Made by a program: the position numbers and the translations under genes
Notes under the pieces: generated by a model
Databases searched by the model: none
Seen by the model: the letters and a program-made list of their open reading frames with translations, nothing else
Told to the model about the DNA's origin: nothing
Shown: in pieces, positions 3,678 to 64,000 of the stretch
How positions within the stretch are numbered: position 1 is the first letter of the stretch
Layout of the letters: each line of letters begins with the position of its first letter
Origin: Octopus vulgaris
Taxonomy: Eukaryota
Reading direction: 5' to 3'
Assembly (NCBI GenBank): GCA_951406725.2
Contig: OX597827.1
Coordinates: 23,622,001-23,686,000, forward strand
Length of the DNA stretch: 64,000 nt

Positions 3678-4105
3678 GGATCTTTTCGGTTTGAACGGCA
3701 GTTTTTAACAGTTTTTAGGTAACTAAAAAATTTTAAACTTCGTATACTGGTAGAATGTGTTTATAAAACATCTTTTTCTCTTGGATTTATTGAGAAAATT
3801 CTATAGTTTGTAAGATATTCGTTGTTTTGGTTTTTTTTTCAATTTCTGCAATTTCAACCAATCACTGACGTCTATTGAGGTACAAAACATTCTGTGCTGT
3901 ATGAATATGTTCCTCGTTTAAGAAACAGATTGGGTTTATTTACATTTGTGAAGAAAAAAAGATACCCTTCCCCCACCCCTAACCCTAACTAACCCTAACC
4001 CTAAAACAGATTGAAATGCAATAGATCGATACTAGGGTCATAATTATGGGTGACAATTTCATATGACACCGCTAGAAAAAACTGTCGTTCAAACCGAAAA
4101 GATCC
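3678..4105. mobile_element. MITE family M1 (GG..CC termini, 8-bp TSD; Merlin-like) with internal (CCCTAA)n
   Basis: TIRs ggatcttttcggtttgaacggcagttt / aaactgtcgttcaaaccgaaaagatcc; TSD gaaaattg at 3670-3677 and 4106-4113. Confidence 0.9.
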
Positions 4106-4858
4106 GAAAATTGTTGCCAAATCTCACGCAAATTCCACCCAGCAGCAATAAAACAGAAAGAACACATCGGCCAATGTAATCTCTAATACATAAAAGAACC
4201 GGTAATTTTTGGTTATCGACAAGAGATTGGATTAAAAGAGATCCTTTTGATTCAATACTCCAACACAGTGTTGACTTTTGGCCTCCTCAATAGCCATGAA
4301 ATGATTTGTTATAAAAATATTATCAGATTCAATAAGTTGTTTTATCTTTTCACTTTTTTAGGGGGGGGGAAACAAATTTTTAAGATAAGGGAGATAACCA
4401 AAAGTATCGATGTTTCTCATAAAACTTGGGGAGTTAACCCAATTTTTTAATGAGGGTTAGATAACCAAAATGTACCAAAAACATACGATATGGGCACGGC
4501 TGGAACACCGTTGATAAAACGTATGGGTCTAAAGAACAACAAGAGGAGTGTTAAATCTAACATAGATGCATGGTTTTCACTCAAAAGATGTAGATTTGCG
4601 AAATAAAATGCATGCTTTCGGATCTGGAATAATCTTTGTGATGAGGTTGTAGAGAAAATGATTGGTAATTCCACCAAATACAACAAGGAAAGGAAAAGAA
4701 TTGTTCATTTTTATTTATTTATTTAAGATTAAGAAAATATTTTATATTCTGGGCCCGGCGTGACGAGTTACGTCTGCTGGTATAAGAAGTGCCGATAACA
4801 AGAAATTTATGAACCAGACAAGGAAGGAAAGAGCAAACGAACAAACGAACGAACGAAA

Positions 4859-15465: not shown

Positions 15466-15670
15466 ACATCAACATTAACATCAACATTCACATCCTGTTG
15501 GGCAATTTTCTCGTAGCAGTAAGTCATATCAGCCTTTCGCTAACTGAAATATCTCATCTGTGCTCGCCACGATGACAGATGATAGTAATTCACTGACTGA
15601 ACGAGTTGATCTTGGCCATTGTCTGTTTCTTGTCCGTTCATCTGCCCTGCATCTAATGATATTCGTCATA

Positions 15671-16091
15671 GGCGCCGAGCTGGCAGAATCGTTAGCACGC
15701 CAGGCGAAATGCTTAGCGGTATTTCGTCTGCCGTAACATTCTGAGTTCAAATTCTGCCGAGATCGACTTTGCCTTTCATCCTTTCGGGGTCGATAAATTA
15801 AGTACCAGTTGCACACTGGGTTCGATGTAATCGACTTAATCCGTTTGTCTGTCCTTGTTTGTACCCTCTGTGTTTAGCCCCTTGTGGGTAATAAAGAAAT
15901 AGATATTTCGTCTGCGTTACGTTCTGAGTTCAAATTCCGCCGAGGTCGACTTTGCCTTTCATCTTTTCGGGGTCGATAAATTAAGTACCAGTTGCACACT
16001 GGGGTCGATGTAATCGACTTAATCCGTTTGTCTGTCCTTGTTTGTCCTCTCTGTGTTTAGCCCCTTATGGGTAGTAAAAGAAATAGGTATT
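15671..16091 (+). mobile_element. SINE family A with tandemly duplicated 3' body
   Basis: Head at 15671; body repeated from ~15903. Confidence 0.9.
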
Positions 16092-18092: not shown

Positions 18093-18512
18093 GGCGGCGA
18101 GCTGGCAGAAACGTTAGCACGCCGGGCGAAATGCGTAGCCGTATTTCGTCTGCCGTTACGTTCTGAGTTCAAATTCCGCCGCGGTCGACTTTGCCTTTCA
18201 TCCTTTCGGGGTCGATTAAATAAGTACCAGTTACGTACTGGGCTCGATGTAATCGACTTAATCCGTGTGTCTATCCTTGTTTGTCCCCTCTGTGCTTAGC
18301 CCCTTGTGGGTGGTAAAGAAATAGGTATTTCGTCTGCCGTTACGTTCTGAGTTCAAATTCCGCCGAGGTCGACTTTGCCTTTCATCCTTTCGGGGTCGAT
18401 TAAATAAGTACCAGTTACGCAGTGGGATCGATATAATCGACTTAATCTGTTTGTCTGTCCTTGTTTGTCCCCTCTGTGTTTGGCCCCTTGTGAGTAGTAA
18501 AGAAATAGGTAT
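18093..18512 (+). mobile_element. SINE family A with duplicated 3' body and 8-bp TSD
   Basis: TSD tctaccac at 18085-18092 and 18513-18520; inserted in a degenerate gtaccact-type minisatellite (18001-18580). Confidence 0.9.
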
Positions 18513-23573: not shown

Positions 23574-23980
23574 GGATCTTTTCGGTTAGAACGGCAGTTT
23601 TTAACATAATTTCTAGGTAATTAAAAAATTTTAAACATCGTATACTGGTAGAATGTGTTTATAAAACATCTTTTTCTCTTGGCTTTATTGAGAAAATTCT
23701 ATAGTTTGTAAGATATTTGTTTTTTTTCTTCAATTTCTGCAATTTCAGCCAATCAGTGACGTCTATTGAGTTAAAAAGCATTCTGTGCCGTATGAATATT
23801 TCCCTCGTTTAAGAAACAGATTGGGTTTATTAGCATTCTGAAGAAAAAAATATACCCTTCCCCTCACCCCTAACCCTAAAACAGATTGAAATGCAATAGA
23901 TCGATTCTAGGGTCATAATTATGGGTGACAATTTCATATGACACCGCTAGAAAAAACTGTCGTTCAAACCGAAAAGATCC
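23574..23980. mobile_element. MITE family M1 copy 2
   Basis: Same TIRs; TSD gagttatt (23566-23573) / gagttatc (23981-23988). Confidence 0.9.
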
Positions 23981-24457
23981 GAGTTATCTCTTTAAAAATA
24001 GCCCAATAAAAATATCACTTCCACACAGAAAAAAAAAAAAAAAACTATCGCCAAAAACAAAATAAGAAAAGAAAATTCTTTTTATGAGTTTTCTCGTGTC
24101 GTATGAAGAATTGTTCCTTGTTTGTTTTACCATTACAACTTGAACTAGATTTTAGCAAAGATATTGTTTTCATTTATATGTATTATATTTTCTTTTCTTG
24201 TCACTTTTTTTTCTTGCTTATTTTCTTAAACTAGATTTTGATAAAAGGTTTTACTCGTTATCGTAAGCACACTTATTTTTCCTATTTCGCTTTTCAGCGT
24301 TTAATTCATTGTGTACAACTTTTTATCTTAATTTGTGTGTTTGTGCGCGCGCGCAATTTTGTCCACCACGTTTTCAATGTTTTTCAGCCTGTTGTGGCCC
24401 CTCATGTTGTCCCACTGTTCTTTTTGTCCCTACGTTCCATTTGTGCTACTTTACTTA

Positions 24458-25715
24458 CGAGGGACGTTCAATGAGTAATGCCCCTGACCCACTTGCAGTT
24501 GTTTGATCTATAGATTAAGTGACAAATTGCAGCTCTGAACTAATTGTGGTTTCTGATTTACAGGTGTTTGAACTGAGTCAAGTGTGAAATGGAGCCTGTT
24601 GAGTGTCGAGCAGTAATCCGGTTTTTGTATTTGAAAGGATGCACACCACAGGAGAGTTTTGATGAAATGAAAGTAACTTATGGTGATGATACCCCATCAT
24701 ATGACCTTGTAAAACGCTGGCATCGTGAATTCAAACATGGTCGGAACTCTGGGGAAACAGCTTCCAGATCTGGTCGCCCCTCTTCTGCCATTGTTGAGGC
24801 ATCTGTCCGTCAAGTTGAGGCTGCCATTTTGGAAGATCGACGCATAACAATTCGCCAAATAGCCCATCAGGTCAAGATTAGTACCGGGTTTGTGGAAACT
24901 ATCATTCATGACCATTTGCATATGCAAAAGGTGTCTGCTAGATGGATTCCCAGGTTGCTCACACCTTTCCAGAAGCAAGAACGCGTCGAGTGCTCGAGGA
25001 TGAATTTGGAGATGTGCCAAGAAGATGAGTCAAAATTTTTCAAATGACTGATTACACAGGATGAAACCTGGGTCCATCACTATGATCCAGAGACCAAAGC
25101 CCAGTCAATGCAGTGGAAGCACCGTGACTCACCTCCTCCAAAGAAGGCAAGGATGCAGCCCTTCGCTGGCAAGGTCATGCTCACAGTCTTCTGGGACCAG
25201 GACGGAGTAGTGATGACAGATTTCCTGGCAAAGGGTACCACAATTACAGGAGCCTATTATGCTTCAATTTTGAGGAAATTAAGAGAAGCTATCAAAATCA
25301 AGAGGCGGGGCAAGATCAGCAAAGGCATCCTCCTCCTGCAAGACAACGCTCCGGTCCACAACTCGCGTGTCATCAGATCAGAAGCAAAGGCGTGCGGCTA
25401 TGAACTCCTCCCCCATCCCCCCCTACTCTCCTGACCTTGCACCCTCTGATTTTCACCTCTTCCCAGCCATGAAGTTGTTTTTGAAAGGAAAGCGTTTCCC
25501 AGATGATGCAGCCTTGATTTCTGAAGTCACGTCGTGGTTGGAGGACCAAGCTGGGGTCTTCTACAAAAACGGTCTCCAGAGCTGCATCAAACGATGAGAG
25601 AAATGCATAACTCTGGGTGGTTCCTATGCAGAAAAAGACTAATAACTATGCCAAGTTTCGTTGCTCTACTGCTATGGGAAGTGGGTCAGGGGCATTACTT
25701 ATTGAACGCCCCTCG
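24458..25715 (+). mobile_element. Full-length mariner DNA transposon (1258 bp, irritans-like TIRs)
   Basis: 37-bp TIRs cgagggacgttcaatgagtaatgcccctgacccactt / aagtgggtcaggggcattacttattgaacgcccctcg (2 mismatches); TA TSD at 24456-24457 and 25716-25717. Confidence 0.95.
24589..25642 (+). pseudogene. Mariner D,D34D transposase pseudogene
   Basis: MEPVECRAVIRFL..GRP..WIPRLLT, TQDETW, LQDNAP and YSPDLAPSDFHLF motifs; stops at 25045-25047 and 25595-25597; frameshift in the C-run near 25410-25425. Confidence 0.95.
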
Positions 25716-25857
25716 TATATGGACACAAACACACACACACATTTATTTTTATTGGCGCATATGAGTATATATATATATGTATATCTACGCTCCCAGCTTA
25801 GTTTTTCTAATGCTCGTTGCTTAGTTTTTCTTGGAGGGCTGGCCGTGATCTAGTAAT

Positions 25858-26919: not shown

Positions 26920-27313
26920 TGCAAGGCGGCGAGCTGGCAGAAACGTTAGCGCGCCGGGCGAAATGCTTAGCGGTCTGCCGCTACGTTCTGAATTCAAATT
27001 CCGCCGAGGTCTACTTTACCTTTCATCCTTTCGGGGTCGATAAATTAAGTACCAGTTACGCACTGGGGTCGATGTAATCGACTTAATCCGTTTGTCTGTC
27101 CTGGTTTGTCCTCTCTGTATTTAGCCCCTTCTGGGTAGTAAAGAAATAGGTATTTCGTCTGTCTTTATGTTCTGAGTTCAAATTTCGCCGAGGTAGACTT
27201 TGCCTTTCATCCTTTGGGAGTCGATAAATTAATTAGCCGTTGCGTACTGGGGTCGATCTAATCGATTGGCCTCCACCCAAAAAATTTCGGGCCTTGTGCC
27301 TAGAGTTGAAAGG
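26920..27313 (+). mobile_element. SINE family A, composite (two different 3' modules), 14-bp TSD
   Basis: TSD aatatattagtgct at 26906-26919 and 27314-27327. Confidence 0.9.
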
Positions 27314-27942: not shown

Positions 27943-28130
27943 TTCACTGAAGGGGACGGCTAAATAGCCCTCACGCCCCGACGGACGAACATGTTGGTAA
28001 TATGGGTAACAAAACTGTTGAAGCTAATGACGAGTGTTCCTATTGATTTAGAAATCCTTATACATTGCATTATAACAGTATTCACAGTGAAACAGGCAGC
28101 TCAGCACCGAGGAAATTGGACAGAAAGTGG

Positions 28131-28622
28131 GGTTCAACTAAGAGAGGCTCAATAAAGAGAGGTTCAATTAAGAGAGGTTCAATAAAGAGAGGTTCAATTA
28201 AGAGAGGTTCAATTAAGAGAGGTTCAATAAAGAGAGGTTCAATAAAGAGAGGTTCAATTAAGAGAGGTTCAATAAAGAGAGATTCAATTAAGAGAGGTTC
28301 AACTAAGAGGAGTTCAACTAAGAGGGGTTCAACTAATAGAGGTTCAATTAAGAGAGGTTCAACTAAGAGGGGTTCAATTAAGAGAGGTTCAGCTAAGAGG
28401 GGTTCAGCTATGAGAGGTTCAACTAAGAGGGGTTCAACTAAGAGAGGTTCAACTAAGAGAGGTTCAATTAAGAAAGGTTCAACTAAGAGGGGTTCAATTC
28501 AGAGAGGTTCAACTAAGAGAGGATCAATAAAGAGGGGTTCAATTAAGAGAGGTTCAATTAAGAGAGGTTCAACAAAGAGAAGTTCAACAAAGAGAGGTTC
28601 AACTAAGAGAGGTTCAAGTAAG
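28131..28622. repeat. 15-bp minisatellite GGTTCAA(T/C)(T/A)AAGAG(A/G), ~33 copies
   Basis: Direct inspection; one frame is stop-free, giving the (RGSIK/RGSTK)n ORF 28065-28646. Confidence 0.95.
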
Positions 28623-28845: not shown

Positions 28846-28981
28846 GAAAAGGGCCCAATGCAGCACATTATAAATACAGACCAGCCCCATTCACACCACC
28901 ACCATCACCACCATCAATGCCACCACCAGGGCCACCACCATAATCTTCACAATCAAAACCACCAACCACAATAACAATATT

Positions 28982-29159
28982 CTTTTCTACTCTAGTCATA
29001 AGTCCCGAAATTGGGGGCGGGGGGGGGCAGTCGATTAGATCGACCCCAGTTCGCAGCTGGTACTTAATTTATCGATCCCGAAAAGGATGAAAGGCAAAAT
29101 CGACCTCGGCGGAATTTGAACCCGGCGTGCTAACGTTTCTGCCAGCTCTTCGCCGCCTT
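28982..29159 (-). mobile_element. SINE family A, internally deleted, 15-bp TSD
   Basis: TSD cacaataacaatatt at 28967-28981 and 29160-29174. Confidence 0.85.
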
Positions 29160-29429
29160 CACAATAACAATATTACCAATACAACATCGTCGGTCCTTAG
29201 GTTCTGAGTTCAAATTCCACTGAGGTCGACATTGCCTTTCATCATTTTGGGGTCAATAAAAATCAGTACCAGTCGAACATTGGGATCGAATGTAATCGAT
29301 TAGACGCTACCCCGAAATTGCTGGCCTTGTGCCAAAATTTGAAATCGATATTACCAATACAGCCATACCACCACCGCCGCCGCCGCCACCATCACCACAA
29401 CCAACAACAACAATATCCAATTATTTTTA

Positions 29430-32975: not shown

Positions 32976-33383
32976 GGATGTTTTCGGTTTGAACGGCAGT
33001 TTTTAACATAATTTCTGGGTAACTAAAAAATTTTAAACTTCGTATACTGGTAGAATGTGTTTATAAAACATCTTTTTCTCTTGGCTTTGTTGAGAAAATT
33101 CTATAGTTTGTAAGATATTTGTTGTTTTTTTTCTTCACTTTCTGCAATTTCAACCAATCAATGACGTCTATTGAGGTGAAAACATTCTGTGTCGTATGAA
33201 TATGCCCCTCGTTTAAGAAACAGATTGGGTTTATTTACATTTGTGAAGAAAAAAGATACCCTTCCCATAACCCTAACCCTAACCCTAAAATAGATTGAAA
33301 TGCAATAGATTAGGGTCATAATTATTTGTGACAATTTCATATGACACCGCTAGAAAAAAATGCCGTTCAAACCGAAAAGATCC
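32976..33383. mobile_element. MITE family M1 copy 3
   Basis: Same TIRs; perfect TSD tattactc at 32968-32975 and 33384-33391; internal aaccctaaccctaaccctaa. Confidence 0.9.
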
Positions 33384-33420: not shown

Positions 33421-33669
33421 GGTACTATTTAAAAAGAGTGGTCCCAGTGCGCGCACTCGCGTACTCGCGCATCCGCGCTAGCTAGTCGTGACTAATCGAT
33501 CCTACAACGTAAATAAAACAAAATGAATAATTTTTTTACACAAATAATTTTTTTAAACAAAGTAAATAAAACAAAAACACAAAGTAAGGATCGACTAGTC
33601 ACGACTGGCTAGCGCGGATACGCGAGTACGTGAGTGCGCGCACCGGGACCACTCTTCTTAAATAGTCCC
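33421..33669. mobile_element. MITE family M2 (long GC-rich TIRs, GG..CC termini, 8-bp TSD)
   Basis: ~80-bp TIRs ggtactatttaaaaagagtggtccc..ctagtcgtgactaatcgatcct; TSD atttttta on both sides; half copy at ~34313-34398. Confidence 0.9.
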
Positions 33670-33703
33670 ATTTTTTATACATTTACTAGAAGAGTGTTTG
33701 AGA

Positions 33704-33767: not shown

Positions 33768-34409
33768 AGTCACTAGCCTTCTTTTAAAAGTATATTTGTG
33801 TGTATGTATATTATATGTATATGGAGGTGTTTATGTGTGCATATTGTGCGTGTGTGTGTGTACACATTGTCGTAATTATTTTCATACATTTTAATAGCAT
33901 AATCCATAGTTGTTCTTTTTTGAACAAGAAATGATCGATTGAGACCGATCACACTTCGCATTTGCAGTCTTTCACAAAACCCCCAAAACATTCTTTATTT
34001 TTATCTGATGAAGATTAGTGTTTTCCAACCGTGATCATCCTTCCATGATTTATTTTTCCGGTTAATATATAGATCCGCGCCCGGGTGGGACAAATGGAAA
34101 ATAATATGTGTAACATAGACCACTTCTTGAAGCGGTCTAGTTATAATATGAGAAAGACTTAGCATCTATTTCGACCCGCTCCACACTGCTAAATTATTTG
34201 ATCGAATCCTGTAAATATGGAAGGTTAGGTTGACCTCAGCAGGATTCGAACTCAGAACGTAAATGAAATGCAACTGTGATTGCTTATTTGCTGGCTGACA
34301 TCTAGGGGACGCTACTAGGCTCAAGAAGAGTGGTCCCGGTGCGCGCACTCACATACTCGCGTATCCGCGCTAGCCAGTCGTGACTAGTCGATCCTTACTC
34401 TCTCTCTCG

Positions 34410-35970: not shown

Positions 35971-36404
35971 ATAGGAACTGTTTTATCTATGTATTCATCC
36001 ATTTTAAAGGCAGTATGTTGAAATTTGAATATTTGGCTGCTGTTTCTAACACGTGACCACGTACCCAACCATACCCCTGTTATTAGTATCAACAACAATC
36101 ATAACACACCACAATGTCTTCTAATAACATACATACACTCTAAATTTAATTATAAGTCTTTCTTTATTTGCAAATTGACCGCGAAAAGTCACATAAAGGA
36201 GAGAAATGGACAAAAAGCAACAAGATTGATATTTTTCTACCTAGGGCACGGCATTGACCCCTTCCATCAGTTACACAGTGAAAATACTACAAAGATATCA
36301 TTATTCAAAACACCCGGAGTCTGACAACATTACGTGCATACCCGTAAAACACCTCCAGAAACTACCAACAGCACAGCATAAATACTCCTAAAATAACCCT
36401 GAGA

Positions 36405-36614
36405 CTTTATTTACATTATTTACATTTGACGGATATTTATCCTCATCTTGTTTGTTGTTAACACAACGTTTCGGCTGATATACCCTCCAGCCTTCATCAG
36501 GTGTCTTGGGGAAATTTTGAACCTGGATTCTCATTCCTAAGGTATTTTCCACTGTTATTATTATTATTACTACTAATCCCAAGATTCCGAGTTCGATTCC
36601 AGGCAGTGACCTGA

Positions 36615-36658
<44 letters not shown>

Positions 36659-36680
36659 ACCATCGAAAAATGCCTTAGAA
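36405..36680. mobile_element. Hammerhead-bearing tRNA-headed retroposon (family H), inverted partial duplication
   Basis: Minus-strand body with hammerhead (36405-36570) joined to plus-strand B-box head + (TAA)n + body start (36571-36680). Confidence 0.8.
36460..36505 (-). ncRNA. Minimal type I hammerhead ribozyme, intact core
   Basis: GACAC CUGAUGA A GGCUG GAGGGUAUAU CAGCC GAAA CG UU GUGUU: 5-bp stem I, 5-6-bp stem II, loopless palindromic stem III (ACGU), GUU site; predicted cut between 36465 and 36464. Confidence 0.8.
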
Positions 36681-44163: not shown

Positions 44164-44412
44164 GGTACGAGTACTACTTGAGAACAGTGGTCCCGGTGCG
44201 CGTATTCGCGCATCCGCGCTAGCTAGTCATGACTAGTCGATCCTTACTTTGTGTTTTTGTGTGTTATTTACTTTGTGTAACACAAAATTATTTATTTTGT
44301 GTTTTATTTACTTTGCTAGGTAGTCGTTGTAGTATCGATAGTCACTACTAGCTAGCGCGGATACGCGAGTGCCCGAGTGTGCGCACCGGGACCACTGTTC
44401 TCAAGTAGTACC
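44164..44412. mobile_element. MITE family M2 copy 2, 9-bp TSD
   Basis: TIR gtactacttgagaacagtggtcccggtgcgc; TSD caatttaaa at 44155-44163 and 44413-44421. Confidence 0.9.
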
Positions 44413-44468
44413 CAATTTAAACAGATTTTTCACCGTCTCGTGTTAGTACTTTCCCTCCAACATACACA

Positions 44469-55930: not shown

Positions 55931-57035
55931 AGTTAATATAATATCAACAATCTGCAATATTCTTCCAATGAGTGAGCCTTTACAATCCAAAAAATAACAA
56001 CCAAATCTCTTCTGTAAATACCGCCTTAAAGAGGGACGGATAGATTAAGCTAAAGGGGTGCTAGATTCAACAATCTAGAAAGAAAAAAAACGATGAGATG
56101 ATCATAATTATGGCGTCCTTGATCATTAGTATGCGCAGAACAATTCAAAAATAGTTACACATTCGACCTTTTGATTTCACGATTATCTCTTTGATGTAGT
56201 AGTAGCAGCAGTAGCAGCAGTAGCAGTAGTAGTAGTAGTAGTAGTAGAACTTTGAGGGATCTGGACTCAACCATCTGCAATTTAAATGTAGTGGATTTAT
56301 TCTTATTTATTTAATTATTTTACTTACATCCCCCTTGTGTCCTTCCGTCGGTTCTAAATTACTCACATCCCGTCATTATACACAGCAACTTAAACTATGG
56401 CAATATATATATGTGTGTGTGTGTGTGTGGTTGTTAGTGATGGCGGAAATAATCAGTTTATGGACACCAGACAATTGTTTTCAGCAGACAGTGGGAGGGC
56501 TAAAATATTGAATTGAAAACAAAATGAATGGATAGAATAAATTGTAAAAATAAAGATGAAATAATTTCTAAAATCGTTGCCGTCGTAGAATAAAGATAAG
56601 CCAGCAACTAAGCTAGATTGGGATTTACTTTCGAATCTGGTTCTGAATGAATCCATTTTATAATTGCATTGCAAACTATTTGCCATTAGTGTTGTTGAAG
56701 GACAATGAATGGAATCAATGGCGATATTTAGTTATGGACCTTTGCCGCCTTAATTCAAATCCTGCCGTGATAAAATTTTGCTTTTCGTTCATCTGATATC
56801 GATGGAATAAAGTACTAAAGTCGATTTAATCGACTAACCCCTTCCTACGAGTATGTTATCGTGCTTGTGCCTATGTTAGAAATGGTTATTAAAAGACGGT
56901 GATTCGGGAGAGCAACATACAAAATGTTTTGCGGAATTTTGTTGCGTACCTTTGCATTCTGGTTTCTCCAGTTCCACTCCTATCTGTATATAACTTGGAG
57001 AGGAATTGACACCACTAAAATAACCTAACTCTAGA

Positions 57036-57179
57036 ACATTATTTACACTAGACGGATATTTGTCCTCATCTTGTTTGTTGTTAACACAACGTTTCGGCTG
57101 ATATGCCCTCCAGCCTTCATCGAGTGTCCTAGGAATTTTCGAACCTGGGTTCTCATTCCGAAGGTATTCTTCGATGTTG

Positions 57180-57213
<34 letters not shown>

Positions 57214-57290
57214 AGTCACTGCTTGGAAGCGAACTCGGAATCTTGGGGTTAGTGGCTCGCACTCTTAATTACTACGCCATAGAACTGTGT
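57036..57290 (-). mobile_element. Family H retroposon, complete: tRNA-like head + (TAA)n + hammerhead body, 10-bp TSD
   Basis: Minus strand A-box-like tggcgtagtaatt, B-box-like gagttcgcttcc, (taa)n, then body; TSD taactctaga at 57026-57035 and 57291-57300. Confidence 0.85.
57083..57128 (-). ncRNA. Family H hammerhead motif with mutated core (UCGAUGA)
   Basis: GACAC UCGAUGA A GGCUG GAGGGCAUAU CAGCC GAAA CG UU GUGUU. Confidence 0.65.
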
Positions 57291-58665
57291 TAACTCTAGA
57301 TATTATACACTACAAAAACATGGCGTCTTCCGTAATGCTCCAATGACCAAAAAGAATTGAGATTATGAGACAACACGTATACTAACAAGGTTATTAGGCA
57401 TGTCAGCTACCTGACGGAAATACGTGATGTCAGTAAAAAGACGACATTATTTTTTTTCATACGAATGAGAAGATGAAGGATAAGGAGAATGTCTATGATC
57501 TCCTCTGAAGATGATGGAAGGGAAAGACCTGCCCTGAATACTGTGACAAAGTGGACTCCACTAAAGGTGCCTGATGGCAAAGTGGTGTTAAATCAGATGA
57601 ACGTTTAAGTCTACCACCCCAAACCGGAACGGTTTATCCGACGGGCCTCTATAGTTTGTTTACCAAATTCCACGCACAATACTTTGGTAGACCCATGACT
57701 ATGGTGGAGAATACTACATCACCCAGAGTGCAATGTTGTGGGATTGAATCGAAATTAACATAATTGCAAAACGAACTTCTTAACCTCACGATCATACTTG
57801 CATCTTGTTCGCCTATCAATCCTCTTAACTGCTTAAAAATAGTTAATAAAATCAATACTGTAGTCACAGACAACACTAGGTAGAAATAGGTACCAGCTCA
57901 AGTGTGGTTCAATCTCAGATCACAGTCCTCTTAGCTGTCAGAAATGTGTATGAGCAGTCTAATAACAGCAGTGTATGTGTCATGGCCAGTGTGTTGAACA
58001 GTCTATTCCATGCTAATTATCATTTAGACAACATACTTTACCATGCCTAAAATTTTACTTTAAATATATGCTGAATATTGGTTCTATAATGCCTTAAGGC
58101 TACAACTGATTCCATTGCAGCCAAAATAAGTGATTCTTTACATTTTCTCCTGTTGAAACATTTTGGATTTTCTGTTCATATTGTAAGTTTTATTGTTATT
58201 TTATTTTTTTTAGTTTCCCTTCTCCTCTTCCCATCACTCACTCTCTGACTCATGCACTCTCATCGTTACCTTACCCTTACATCACATTCTCTCTTTTCCT
58301 TCGTCTCCTCACCCCTTTTCACTCCCACCTCTATTCCTGACCCTTCTTTACCCCTCCACCCCACCTCACCCGCGCCTGTATTACCACCACAACCCTCATC
58401 CTCCAACTCCTTTTCTTCTACCACCTTTCTCCTTCTCTTCCAACAAACACACACATGCGCGCACACACATACATATATAAGCACACACAAACACACATAT
58501 AAGCACACACACACACACATATCAACAGTCGATCATCGTCTGCTTCTTCCAGACGTAAACTCTTCCCCCTCCTTCCTCCACAACATCTACTCCCACCCAT
58601 ACTCCTTCTTCAATACCACTTACACCCTATTCCTCATGTACACGTGCACACACACGCACACACAC

Positions 58666-62382: not shown

Positions 62383-62649
62383 GTTCAATATCACTTCTTT
62401 ATTGTTTGTCAATTGGTTAAATATCTAACCGACAAATTGATCGTTTGTTGAATGTGCCGGTTAAATGGTTATTACTGTTGTATTTCCTCGTCATATAGAT
62501 GTCAGACGAGCGGCTAACTTCGCATTATAGCTTGTTACAATTTTGTACTTCCAGACAACAATATTATACTGGGTGTATTCTAATTTCTATATTTTAGAGA
62601 TGAGGAATTCTGTACATTGGATGGATATGTCCTCATCTAGTTTGTTGTA

Positions 62650-62695
62650 ACCACAACGTTTCGGCTGATTTACTCTCCAGCCTTCATCAGGTGTC
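62650..62695 (-). ncRNA. Family H hammerhead, intact core
   Basis: GACAC CUGAUGA A GGCUG GAGAGUAAAU CAGCC GAAA CG UU GUGGU (one stem I mismatch). Confidence 0.75.
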
Positions 62696-62781
62696 CTGAG
62701 GAAATTTTGAGCCCAACCCTGGGTTCTCATTCCCAAAGTAATTTTTTTTTTGCTGGTGTTATTATTATTATTATTATTATT

Positions 62782-63347
62782 GAGTGAGAGAGCAGTGCAT
62801 ACCATCAAAATGACATTGGGGTAAAATATACGAAGCCCAGTATACCCATCATGACTACCCGTCTGATAAGGGTACACCAGGCACATGCATCACAACTAAA
62901 TGTGTGCGACATGGTGATCTCATATCAAGATAAACAGCGCATGACCTTGCAGATGGGGCCCAGTTAGAATTTTCTTCTGGTCGGGTAACCCATCCCACTC
63001 AAAAGGTCCCTGCTTAAGGGTTGTTTAAGGATGTTGAATGAAACACCCGTGTTTCCAAAGGTGAATTATTCAAACCCCAAAGAATTCCTCTCAACACATG
63101 GCTATGATGCTCCCCCACTACTTCTGCTCATGATCAGAGATGCACATATCGTCAGCCACTAAGGGACATGGTCAACTGGTTAAGGTCAAACAACTGACAA
63201 GCAAATCTGTGGTGTTGAGCAGAATATTTGCTGTAGCCCATCTTTTATACCAAGGCAAAACAATGTACATGATATCACTTCCAATCAAAGATTAGAAGCC
63301 ATGAGTAGAAGCCATGAGAGCCACTGTCTGGTACTGCATCAAAGCAT
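62782..63347. mobile_element. ~565-bp unclassified element inserted in a (TTA)n microsatellite
   Basis: Flanked by (tta)n on both sides; splits the family H linker. Confidence 0.6.
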
Positions 63348-63348
63348 A

Positions 63349-63399
<51 letters not shown>

Positions 63400-63610
63400 C
63401 ATTATTATTATCATTATTATTATTATTATCATTATTATTATTATTTTTTCAAGGCACTGCCTGGAATTGAACTCAGAATCCTGTGGTTCAATTCCGAGTT
63501 CAATTCCAGGCAGTGCCTTAAATAAATAAATAATAATAATAATAACAATAACACCAGCAAAAAAATACCTTAGGAATGAGAACCCAGGGCTGGGTTCAAA
63601 ATTCCGCCAT

Positions 63611-63657
63611 GACACCTGATGAAGGCTTGGAGAGTAAATCAGCCGAACCATTGTGAT
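63611..63657 (+). ncRNA. Family H hammerhead, degenerate (GAAC-CA-UU)
   Basis: GACAC CUGAUGA A GGCUUG GAGAGUAAAU CAGCC GAAC CA UU GUGAU. Confidence 0.55.
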
Positions 63658-64000
63658 AACAACAAACAAGATGAGAACACATGTCCATTCATTGTAAATA
63701 ATGTAAATAATGTGTTCTCATTTATTTCCTAATTTTATTCTTAGGCTCCACCGATAGTCCATTGATTGATCAATCTCGGTATTTCTATCTTTATTCATCT
63801 TTATTCATTGTCATCACTCATACATGTACACTACTGGCACAAGATATTACATGGCCATGTTGGTGGTAACTAAAGTGACATCCCCTGCCAGGTTAGTCGG
63901 GTAAGGAGAGGTGCTTTGCAATTACTTGGTTTCAGGACTACTGCTGCCACATGGCCATACTGGGGCACCACCTTGAAGGGTTTCAGTCGAACAAATCAAC

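Follow-up and report, generated by a model that had tools for sequence, protein, structure and literature searches.

A minimal hammerhead in a head-to-head, B-box-headed octopus repeat that probably moves as a non-autonomous Penelope-like element

What put a hammerhead ribozyme into an inverted, partly duplicated short repeat of the octopus genome? The locus at 36405-36680 raises this question within the window, the whole 64-kb stretch of Octopus vulgaris DNA that was analysed and to which all positions refer. Our answer, with a probability of roughly 0.7, is that the locus is the decayed copy of a short repeat in which a (TAA)n linker joins a B-box head to a body carrying a minimal hammerhead motif, and that it is a non-autonomous Penelope-like element (PLE) laid down in one double-primed insertion event. 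The family as a whole is likely a Pol III-headed, non-autonomous PLE that uses a PLE enzyme and not the LINE enzyme of ordinary SINEs. Four features are observed in the window itself: the motif, inversions, a tail on one side only and target duplications.

The first-pass annotation had claimed an intact hammerhead on the minus strand, and the claim holds. The motif at 36460-36505 (-) is a type I minimal hammerhead with a predicted cut between 36465 and 36464. Read 5′ to 3′ on the minus strand, the 5′ side of a 5-bp stem I (36505-36501) is followed by the CUGAUGA core (36500-36494), one extra A at 36493, stem II (36492-36487 with 36478-36473), G12-A15.1 (36472-36469), a palindromic C-G that forms a stem III without a loop (36468-36467), U16.1 (36466), U17 (36465) and the 3′ side of stem I (36464-36460). 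The core positions C3-A9, G12-A14, A15.1-U16.1 and H17 are all present. Stem II was found where it had been described, although it is 6 bp long counting one G-U pair, one more than claimed. A descriptor scan of both strands of the 64 kb gave two matches, this motif with its 5-bp stem I and another at 62690-62655 with a stem I of 3 bp, and a loose hammerhead descriptor matched 0/200 dinucleotide-shuffled windows. Core and 5-bp stem I are both intact in one of the four family bodies of the window, that at 36.4 kb. Rfam scans of the window and the locus matched no hammerhead model and returned only microsatellite-driven miRNA matches.

The motif also looks like those of PLEs. It has an extra nucleotide separating position 9 from 10.1, a G10.1-C11.1 pair, a palindromic 15.2-16.2 and a short stem I, which the accessible text of PMC4209133 gives as traits of PLE minimal hammerheads. 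These are all four of the traits in that text that lie outside the descriptor and can be read from a single sequence or family. The combination of a stem I of 4-5 bp with a long stem II is seen as well (5 bp and 6 bp), with stem I predicted to form only in short constructs. U17 is common among the PLE hammerheads in the available part of a supplement table of PMC8557442.

The locus is built as it had been described, a minus-strand body fused at its (TAA) linker to a plus-strand B-box head, (TAA)n and a truncated body. The long arm (36405-36554, -) is a tail-less family body that stops in a 9-nt repeat at its 3′ end, and it diverges by 11% from the copy at 57 kb and by 14-15% from the two arms at 62/63 kb. 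Its (TAA)5 linker (36555-36569) and the inversion junction occupy 36555-36572 (-), with possible microhomology to the inverted head over the 3 nt at 36570-36572. The short arm begins with a 5′-truncated Pol III-type head (36570-36613, +) that has a B box at 36590-36600 and no A box, and is 90% identical to the 57-kb head. Its remainder (36614-36680, +) consists of (TAA)n at 36614-36654 and about 20 nt of body start at 36661-36680 (E 1.3e-5), and ends tail-less. The arms overlap only in the linker and these roughly 20 nt, where 4 substitutions and 1 gap make 5/21 aligned positions differ. They share no certain private change, and the short arm is closer to the 57-kb copy than to its partner.

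Searches around the locus found no target-site duplication, near or far, no minus-strand head beyond 36680 and no plus-strand A-box part before 36405. The plus arm was not recovered beyond 36680, all 8 body alignments being at shuffle level. Two alignments with a tailed query that might have extended it were equalled by 5 and 7 of 200 shuffles; as borderline cases they were left aside. With neither tail nor target duplication, the 36.4-kb locus taken alone supports Penelope-type movement least of all. The end of its short arm lies within the body, a layout that fits LINE-type twin priming or a later rearrangement as well. We lean towards a single PLE-type event followed by loss of the outer arm. 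The copy is likely a dead, partial example: lacking an A box, and with a head directed away from the ribozyme, it is unable to produce a family transcript itself. One further observation concerns the flanks. An 11-mer with just two exact occurrences in the window, at 36388-36398 (-) and 57015-57025 (-), lies both times 7-10 nt beyond the 3′ end of a family copy. It was noticed post hoc (shuffle mean 0.08; 38/200000 random 25-nt pairs share an 11-mer), and either a target preference or chance is possible.

The window holds four bodies in three insertions, and no further tail pieces or family copies were found in its 64 kb. The insertion at 57036-57280 (-) is a complete head-(TAA)n-body copy, tail-less, with a hammerhead core broken by a swap of C3 and U4. 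A 10-bp target duplication without mismatch (57026-57035 and 57291-57300) marks its outer limits at 57026-57300, and among 3000 random flank pairs 0.4% reach that score. Between head and duplication lie an extra 10-12 nt (57279-57290, +) that are likely an inverted tail end. They overlap the 62-kb tail end by 4-6 nt and read R-T in the frame in which the tail of database copies ends as Y-R-T. Since these nucleotides, read inverted, continue the end of the 62-kb extension, the 57-kb copy likely has a minimal inverted arm.

The third insertion, 62587-63713, is a single head-to-head insertion with a tail on one arm only. The body of its left arm (62587-62780, -) has an intact core, a 3-bp stem I and a 26-nt tail at 62587-62612, the only tail among the four bodies. 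This tail is predicted to pair with the body in a 9-bp hairpin (z -2.8; 6/200 shuffles), and in the loop of the hairpin lies the position at which the other three bodies end. An unrelated 569-bp sequence (62781-63349, -) lies within the left-arm (TAA)n linker, between two (TAA)n runs. It is single-copy in the window, has no long frame and is likely a later insertion of another, microsatellite-targeting family. The rest of the left arm (63350-63489, -) consists of (TAA)n and a truncated head that reaches the inversion centre. The right arm (63490-63713, +) has a truncated head, (TAA)n and a tail-less body with a broken hammerhead core. The two heads meet at about 63489 and are identical at 36/39 nt, and arm-to-arm divergence is 13%. 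Alignment columns that group the two bodies together number 12-13, whereas the other pairings have 1 and 0; of the 13 listed, 9 are gap columns from two indels. A probable 13-bp target duplication (11/13) at 62574-62586 and 63711-63723 sets the outer limits of the insertion (62574-63723). Such a match occurs in 6% of unanchored random pairs, and in 10/4000 boundary-anchored pairs under an anchoring criterion that was set after the match had been seen. Target-site duplications are therefore read at two of the three insertions (10/10 at 57 kb, 11/13 at 62/63 kb, none at 36.4 kb).

Copies end 50-68 nt past the predicted cut position, and all three tail-less bodies stop in the 9-nt repeat, at 50-60 nt. 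At the other end, exact B boxes are present at 36590-36600, 63463-63473 and 63497-63507, and an A-box-like stretch, judged by eye against the consensus, only in the 57-kb copy. ARAGORN and Rfam found no tRNA match in the decayed head copies. In both clear inversions (36570 and about 63489) the head breaks off before the B box, at positions in the head that agree to within a few bases. This shared point could be a preferred stop for reverse transcription.

It had been proposed that inverted junctions should be commoner in this family than in LINE-dependent SINEs, and within the window they are. Of the hammerhead family's insertions 2/3 are fused inversions, while three other dispersed families gave 0/38 loci (Fisher p 0.004, or p 0.011 if one adjacent opposite-strand control pair is counted). 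The comparison covers the three hammerhead-family insertions of the window. The control families F, G and J (15, 15 and 8 loci) may not coincide with families A-D of the earlier annotation, and were scored for fused inversions, not for short inverted remnants. The opposite-strand SINE pair at 28977-29344 was rejected as a fused inversion, as each copy has its own 14-15-bp duplication. The homology of the SINE head there to the hammerhead-family body was not significant. The commonest SINE-like family of the window (15 loci, including 15670-16090, 18093-18512 and 26924-27265) often has a head followed by two tandem bodies, and no hammerhead was found in it.

Other repeats of the window were noted alongside. 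A broken mariner-type transposase lies at 24577-25434 (+; HTH_48 E 2.8e-8, Transposase_1 E 1.1e-25), with inverted ends of the element near 24456-24494 and 25679-25717. One MITE-like family with terminal inverted repeats is found at 3718-4107, 23574-23982 and 32976-33383, and a second at 33472-33674, 34323-34397 and 44173-44418. The second is the source of the spurious Rfam miRNA matches. A minisatellite array of about 500 bp occupies 28124-28622.

Database proteins extend the family beyond the window. A 42-codon open frame through the body served as a handle for protein searches and is not taken as a gene. The matches that carry a name are proteins of Octopus bimaculoides and Octopus sinensis with an N-terminus made of this repeat, and they place the family in Octopus. 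Two annotated Octopus proteins, P0002 and P0184, start with about 26-37 repeat-derived residues, through exonisation or as gene-model artefacts. Among the matches listed (120 of 287 for one search) were 207 repeat-reading ORFs, of which 204 were kept; the phmmer matches P0025, P0041 and P0079 were dropped before counting as unrelated repeats. The kept sets, which are biased toward open frames, comprise 21 ORFs of the same family and 183 of a sister family with a different upstream region. Among the same-family matches listed, a tail of 11-12 codons was present in 4/15 scorable ORFs and an antisense arm was found upstream in 1/3 that extend far enough on that side (P0028) and downstream in 0/5. 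Head-to-tail units were found in 0/21 of these ORFs and in 0/3 insertions of the window. Among the sister-family matches listed, the tail was present in 126/172, head-to-tail units in 31/183, and an antisense arm upstream in 38/148 against downstream in 2/116 (p 6e-9). The tandem joins of the sister family are fixed, with 14 residues in 26/28 joins among the matches listed. The polarity of the upstream arms in the database ORFs is head-to-head, as in the window. The suggestion that the inverted structure points to Penelope-type mobilisation thus stands for the family, by way of 62587-63713, 57036-57290 and the database relatives, but not for the 36.4-kb locus by itself, which has no tail and no duplication.

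Three other explanations have to be weighed. The best survivor among them, which we consider unlikely, grants that the family is Penelope-derived and makes the 36.4-kb arrangement a later DNA accident, in which insertion at the (TAA)n run and a deletion united two independent copies, or through a fold-back. The absent target duplication agrees with this, as do the 5/21 differences between the arms and the better match of the short arm to the 57-kb copy. (TAA)n linkers also attract insertions, as the 569-bp insert at 62781-63349 illustrates, and the anole PLE is reported to cut at ATT (PMC11167929). However, the divergence is within the range of the 13% at 62/63 kb for 21 nt, and neither 36.4-kb flank holds the leftover half of an interrupted copy. 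The locus also shares its polarity and a nearly identical head truncation point with the junction at 63.49 kb.

Less probable again is a LINE-dependent tRNA SINE that carries a piece of Penelope terminal repeat, its hammerhead a passenger and its 36.4-kb inversion a product of twin priming. In twin priming a single template is divided between two arms that for the most part do not overlap, and the outer end of the short arm is left internal. The short arm at 36.4 kb has this geometry, its outer end lying at body +20, and the junction has the possible 3-nt microhomology. The tail-less 3′ end lies in a short tandem repeat, and 3′ ends of this kind occur in many LINE-dependent SINEs. The length of the target duplications, 10-13 bp, is also compatible with LINE-type insertion. 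The 62/63-kb unit is harder to accommodate, as two full arms both start at the 3′ end and one is tailed. The other SINE-like families of the window show 0/38 fused inversions, and the sister family has tails, tandems and inverted arms that lie nearly exclusively upstream (38/148 against 2/116 among the matches listed).

Finally, a non-LTR retrozyme or SM-alpha-like cycle, in which the ribozyme trims transcripts to single units that circularise and reinsert, with monomer debris as the dispersed copies, is improbable: it could draw on a type I hammerhead in a short non-coding unit, on the Pol III promoter joined to a hammerhead that is known from Schistosoma (PMC6765202), on the fixed sister-family joins (26/28 with 14 residues among the matches listed) and on the proposal that retrozymes are pLTR derivatives (bioRxiv 10.64898/2026.07.22.740005), but copies end 50-68 nt past the cut position and not at the cut, the hammerhead family has no tandem (0/3 insertions; 0/21 ORFs among the matches listed), complete copies have the Pol III head as their start and are flanked by target duplications, and cleavage is reported as dispensable for anole PLE insertion in vitro (PMC11167929).

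The reading as a non-autonomous PLE with a Pol III-type head builds on the insertion geometry of the anole element and of PLEs generally, which the family reproduces at small scale. PLEs are described as having an inverted 5′-truncated copy adjoining the 5′ end and a 30-40-bp tail, often at one end only (accessible text of PMC8557442). According to PMC11167929, as far as its text was available, the anole Poseidon protein cuts and extends both DNA strands with a preference for ATT. Reverse transcription there starts at two sites, one of them in a stem-loop, with the tail between them. The Poseidon hammerhead needs protein and is dispensable for insertion in vitro (PMC11167929).

[quoted passage not shown] The body may be a captured pLTR of a Penelope-like element, with the hammerhead, a 3′ stem-loop and a tail of roughly 30 nt. 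A partner RT-GIY-YIG protein, if it acts as described in the available text of PMC11167929, would bind the RNA and cut both strands of AT-rich DNA. By the same comparison (PMC11167929), reverse transcription would start either in the loop, giving the tail-less bodies (3/4), or past the 3′ side of the stem, giving the tailed one (1/4). Two cDNAs would then grow inward and join at their truncated 5′ ends. The tail-out, head-to-head inversions with a tail on one arm are seen in the window; their cause, double priming, is what we infer, together with Pol III transcription and the partner enzyme. The outer part of the 36.4-kb plus arm, tail and target duplication included, may have been lost or may never have been finished.

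A more specific version of the PLE reading is tentative, and we put it a little below even odds. The repeat would be a "Penelope SINE", a high-copy octopus family that has its own Pol III promoter and a captured pLTR, is inserted by PLE double-end priming, and uses a hairpin over the cut site as a switch between template and ribozyme. Such a 5-bp hairpin, competing with the ribozyme fold, is predicted at 36454-36467 (-) in both the MFE and the centroid structure, and the same hairpin is predicted in the 62-kb arm. In a 91-nt transcript of 36440-36530 the competing hairpin is predicted over the cut site and stem I has a pair probability of 0.01. This rises to 0.70-0.99 in constructs of 46-56 nt and is about 0.3 in a whole-body transcript. 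The predicted MFE of a two-copy cofold is not the double-hammerhead fold, and the stem III duplex alone is predicted at -1.7 kcal/mol. Minimal motifs of this type are reported to need a dimer and to be inactive singly (accessible text of PMC4209133), and the inverted short arm at 36.4 kb carries no second hammerhead for one. On the PLE model, cleavage would occur only in a dimer or with the help of protein, and the competing hairpin would keep single transcripts mostly uncut.

The predictions bear on the advice that this copy is the best one for biochemistry. The sequence of the motif bears the advice out, but the transcript proposed for the assay (36440-36530) is predicted to misfold and has no second hammerhead. 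Given that single minimal motifs are also inactive, a negative result from that 91-nt monomer would mean little.

No autonomous parent that shares the terminal sequence of the family was found among the database protein matches listed. The element is under 300 bp and contains no RT or GIY-YIG ORF, unlike an autonomous PLE, and Pfam detected no RT or GIY-YIG domain in the 32 frames scanned out of the window's 68 long frames. Longer fused proteins, considered as parents, turned out to be Octopus host proteins with a spurious first exon made of the repeat, chance fusions to fragments of mariner or LTR elements, and one RT fragment. That fragment is in P0133, a single record in which a sister-family unit and tail are in frame with it (Pfam RVT_1 E 3e-7). 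It has only weak PDB matches (TERT, E 0.036). An Atlas search returned eukaryotic clusters and a lead to RVT_1, seen in 21% of members. A search for full-length relatives gave 45 candidates, none at E 1e-10. P0133 offers the best lead towards the autonomous partner but may also be a nested insertion. Octopus Hydra-1 was rejected as the parent because its hammerhead, as given in the accessible part of PMC8557442, differs; no RT motif strings were found in the part of that paper's supplement that was available. A search of the phage collection gave no match.

The separate ingredients of the proposal have all been described before, namely the minimal hammerheads, the inverted ends and the tails of PLEs, their non-autonomous derivatives, and schistosome repeats in which Pol III drives a hammerhead unit. 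In the open-licence literature we found no report of a dispersed B-box-headed repeat with the full set of PLE insertion signatures, and none of this octopus family as hammerhead-bearing or PLE-dependent. If the proposal is right, a SINE-type element can rely on the enzymes of Penelope elements, and a sizeable octopus repeat has probably been misfiled as an ordinary SINE. With copies that are short and numerous, it would allow tests of how inversions and tails arise in PLEs and of whether the hammerhead plays a part in transposition. Should the "Penelope SINE" version also hold, PLEs would join LINEs and LTR elements as a third type of partner for SINEs, and the family would offer a natural minimal substrate of 280 nt, and very many genomic junctions from which the chemistry of PLE inversions and tails could be read.

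Octopus tRNA-derived SINEs go back to Ohshima and Okada 1994, as cited in the accessible text of PMC10886601 and PMC4758252. They share with the present family the host genus, a Pol III-type head and a likely high copy number. The family may already be catalogued under an Ohshima and Okada name or in Repbase or Dfam. Those SINE families are reportedly named OK and OR1, and a "Twinkle" label is also said to be in use.

There are several known systems that the family resembles in part. Retrozymes as pLTR derivatives, non-autonomous Chlamys and the Pol III hammerhead repeats of Schistosoma come nearest as precedents. As in the metazoan PLE minimal hammerheads (Cervera and de la Pena 2014, PMC4209133, as far as its text is accessible), the motif is of type I, has no stem III loop and occurs mostly in single dispersed copies. 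That text also notes opposite-strand hammerhead pairs 100-700 bp apart in Schistosoma (PMC4209133). Unlike those hammerheads, the octopus motif lies behind a B-box head and (TAA)n, and its stem II is 6 bp against 7-8 bp in Schistosoma. With non-LTR retrozymes (PMC7229834; bioRxiv 10.64898/2026.07.22.740005) and non-autonomous Chlamys such as MRC1 (PMC8557442), the family shares a short, non-coding, pLTR-like unit, and the available texts of the same sources propose that both are served in trans by the PLE machinery. A retrozyme, by definition, consists of tandem units with a hammerhead in each, whereas the octopus family is dispersed, head-to-head and B-box-headed.

The SINE-like SM-alpha and Sj-alpha elements of Schistosoma (PMC6765202, accessible text) likewise join a Pol III promoter to a hammerhead in a short repeat. 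Those elements are tandem, with canonical hammerheads that release units, whereas the octopus motif is of the minimal PLE type and copies do not end at the cut. The ends of octopus copies, unlike theirs, carry PLE insertion signatures. In insertion geometry the family resembles the EN+ PLEs, namely Penelope of D. virilis, Anolis Poseidon, Hydra and Naiad (available text of PMC2377424, PMC11167929 and PMC8557442). These also have a fused inverted 5′-truncated copy, a tail at one end (30-40 nt there), a hammerhead near the 3′ end and two end points tied to a stem-loop. The octopus element differs from them in having about 250-280 bp, no RT/GIY-YIG ORF, a Pol III-type head of its own, a hammerhead unlike that of Octopus Hydra-1, and no partial tandem seen in the family.
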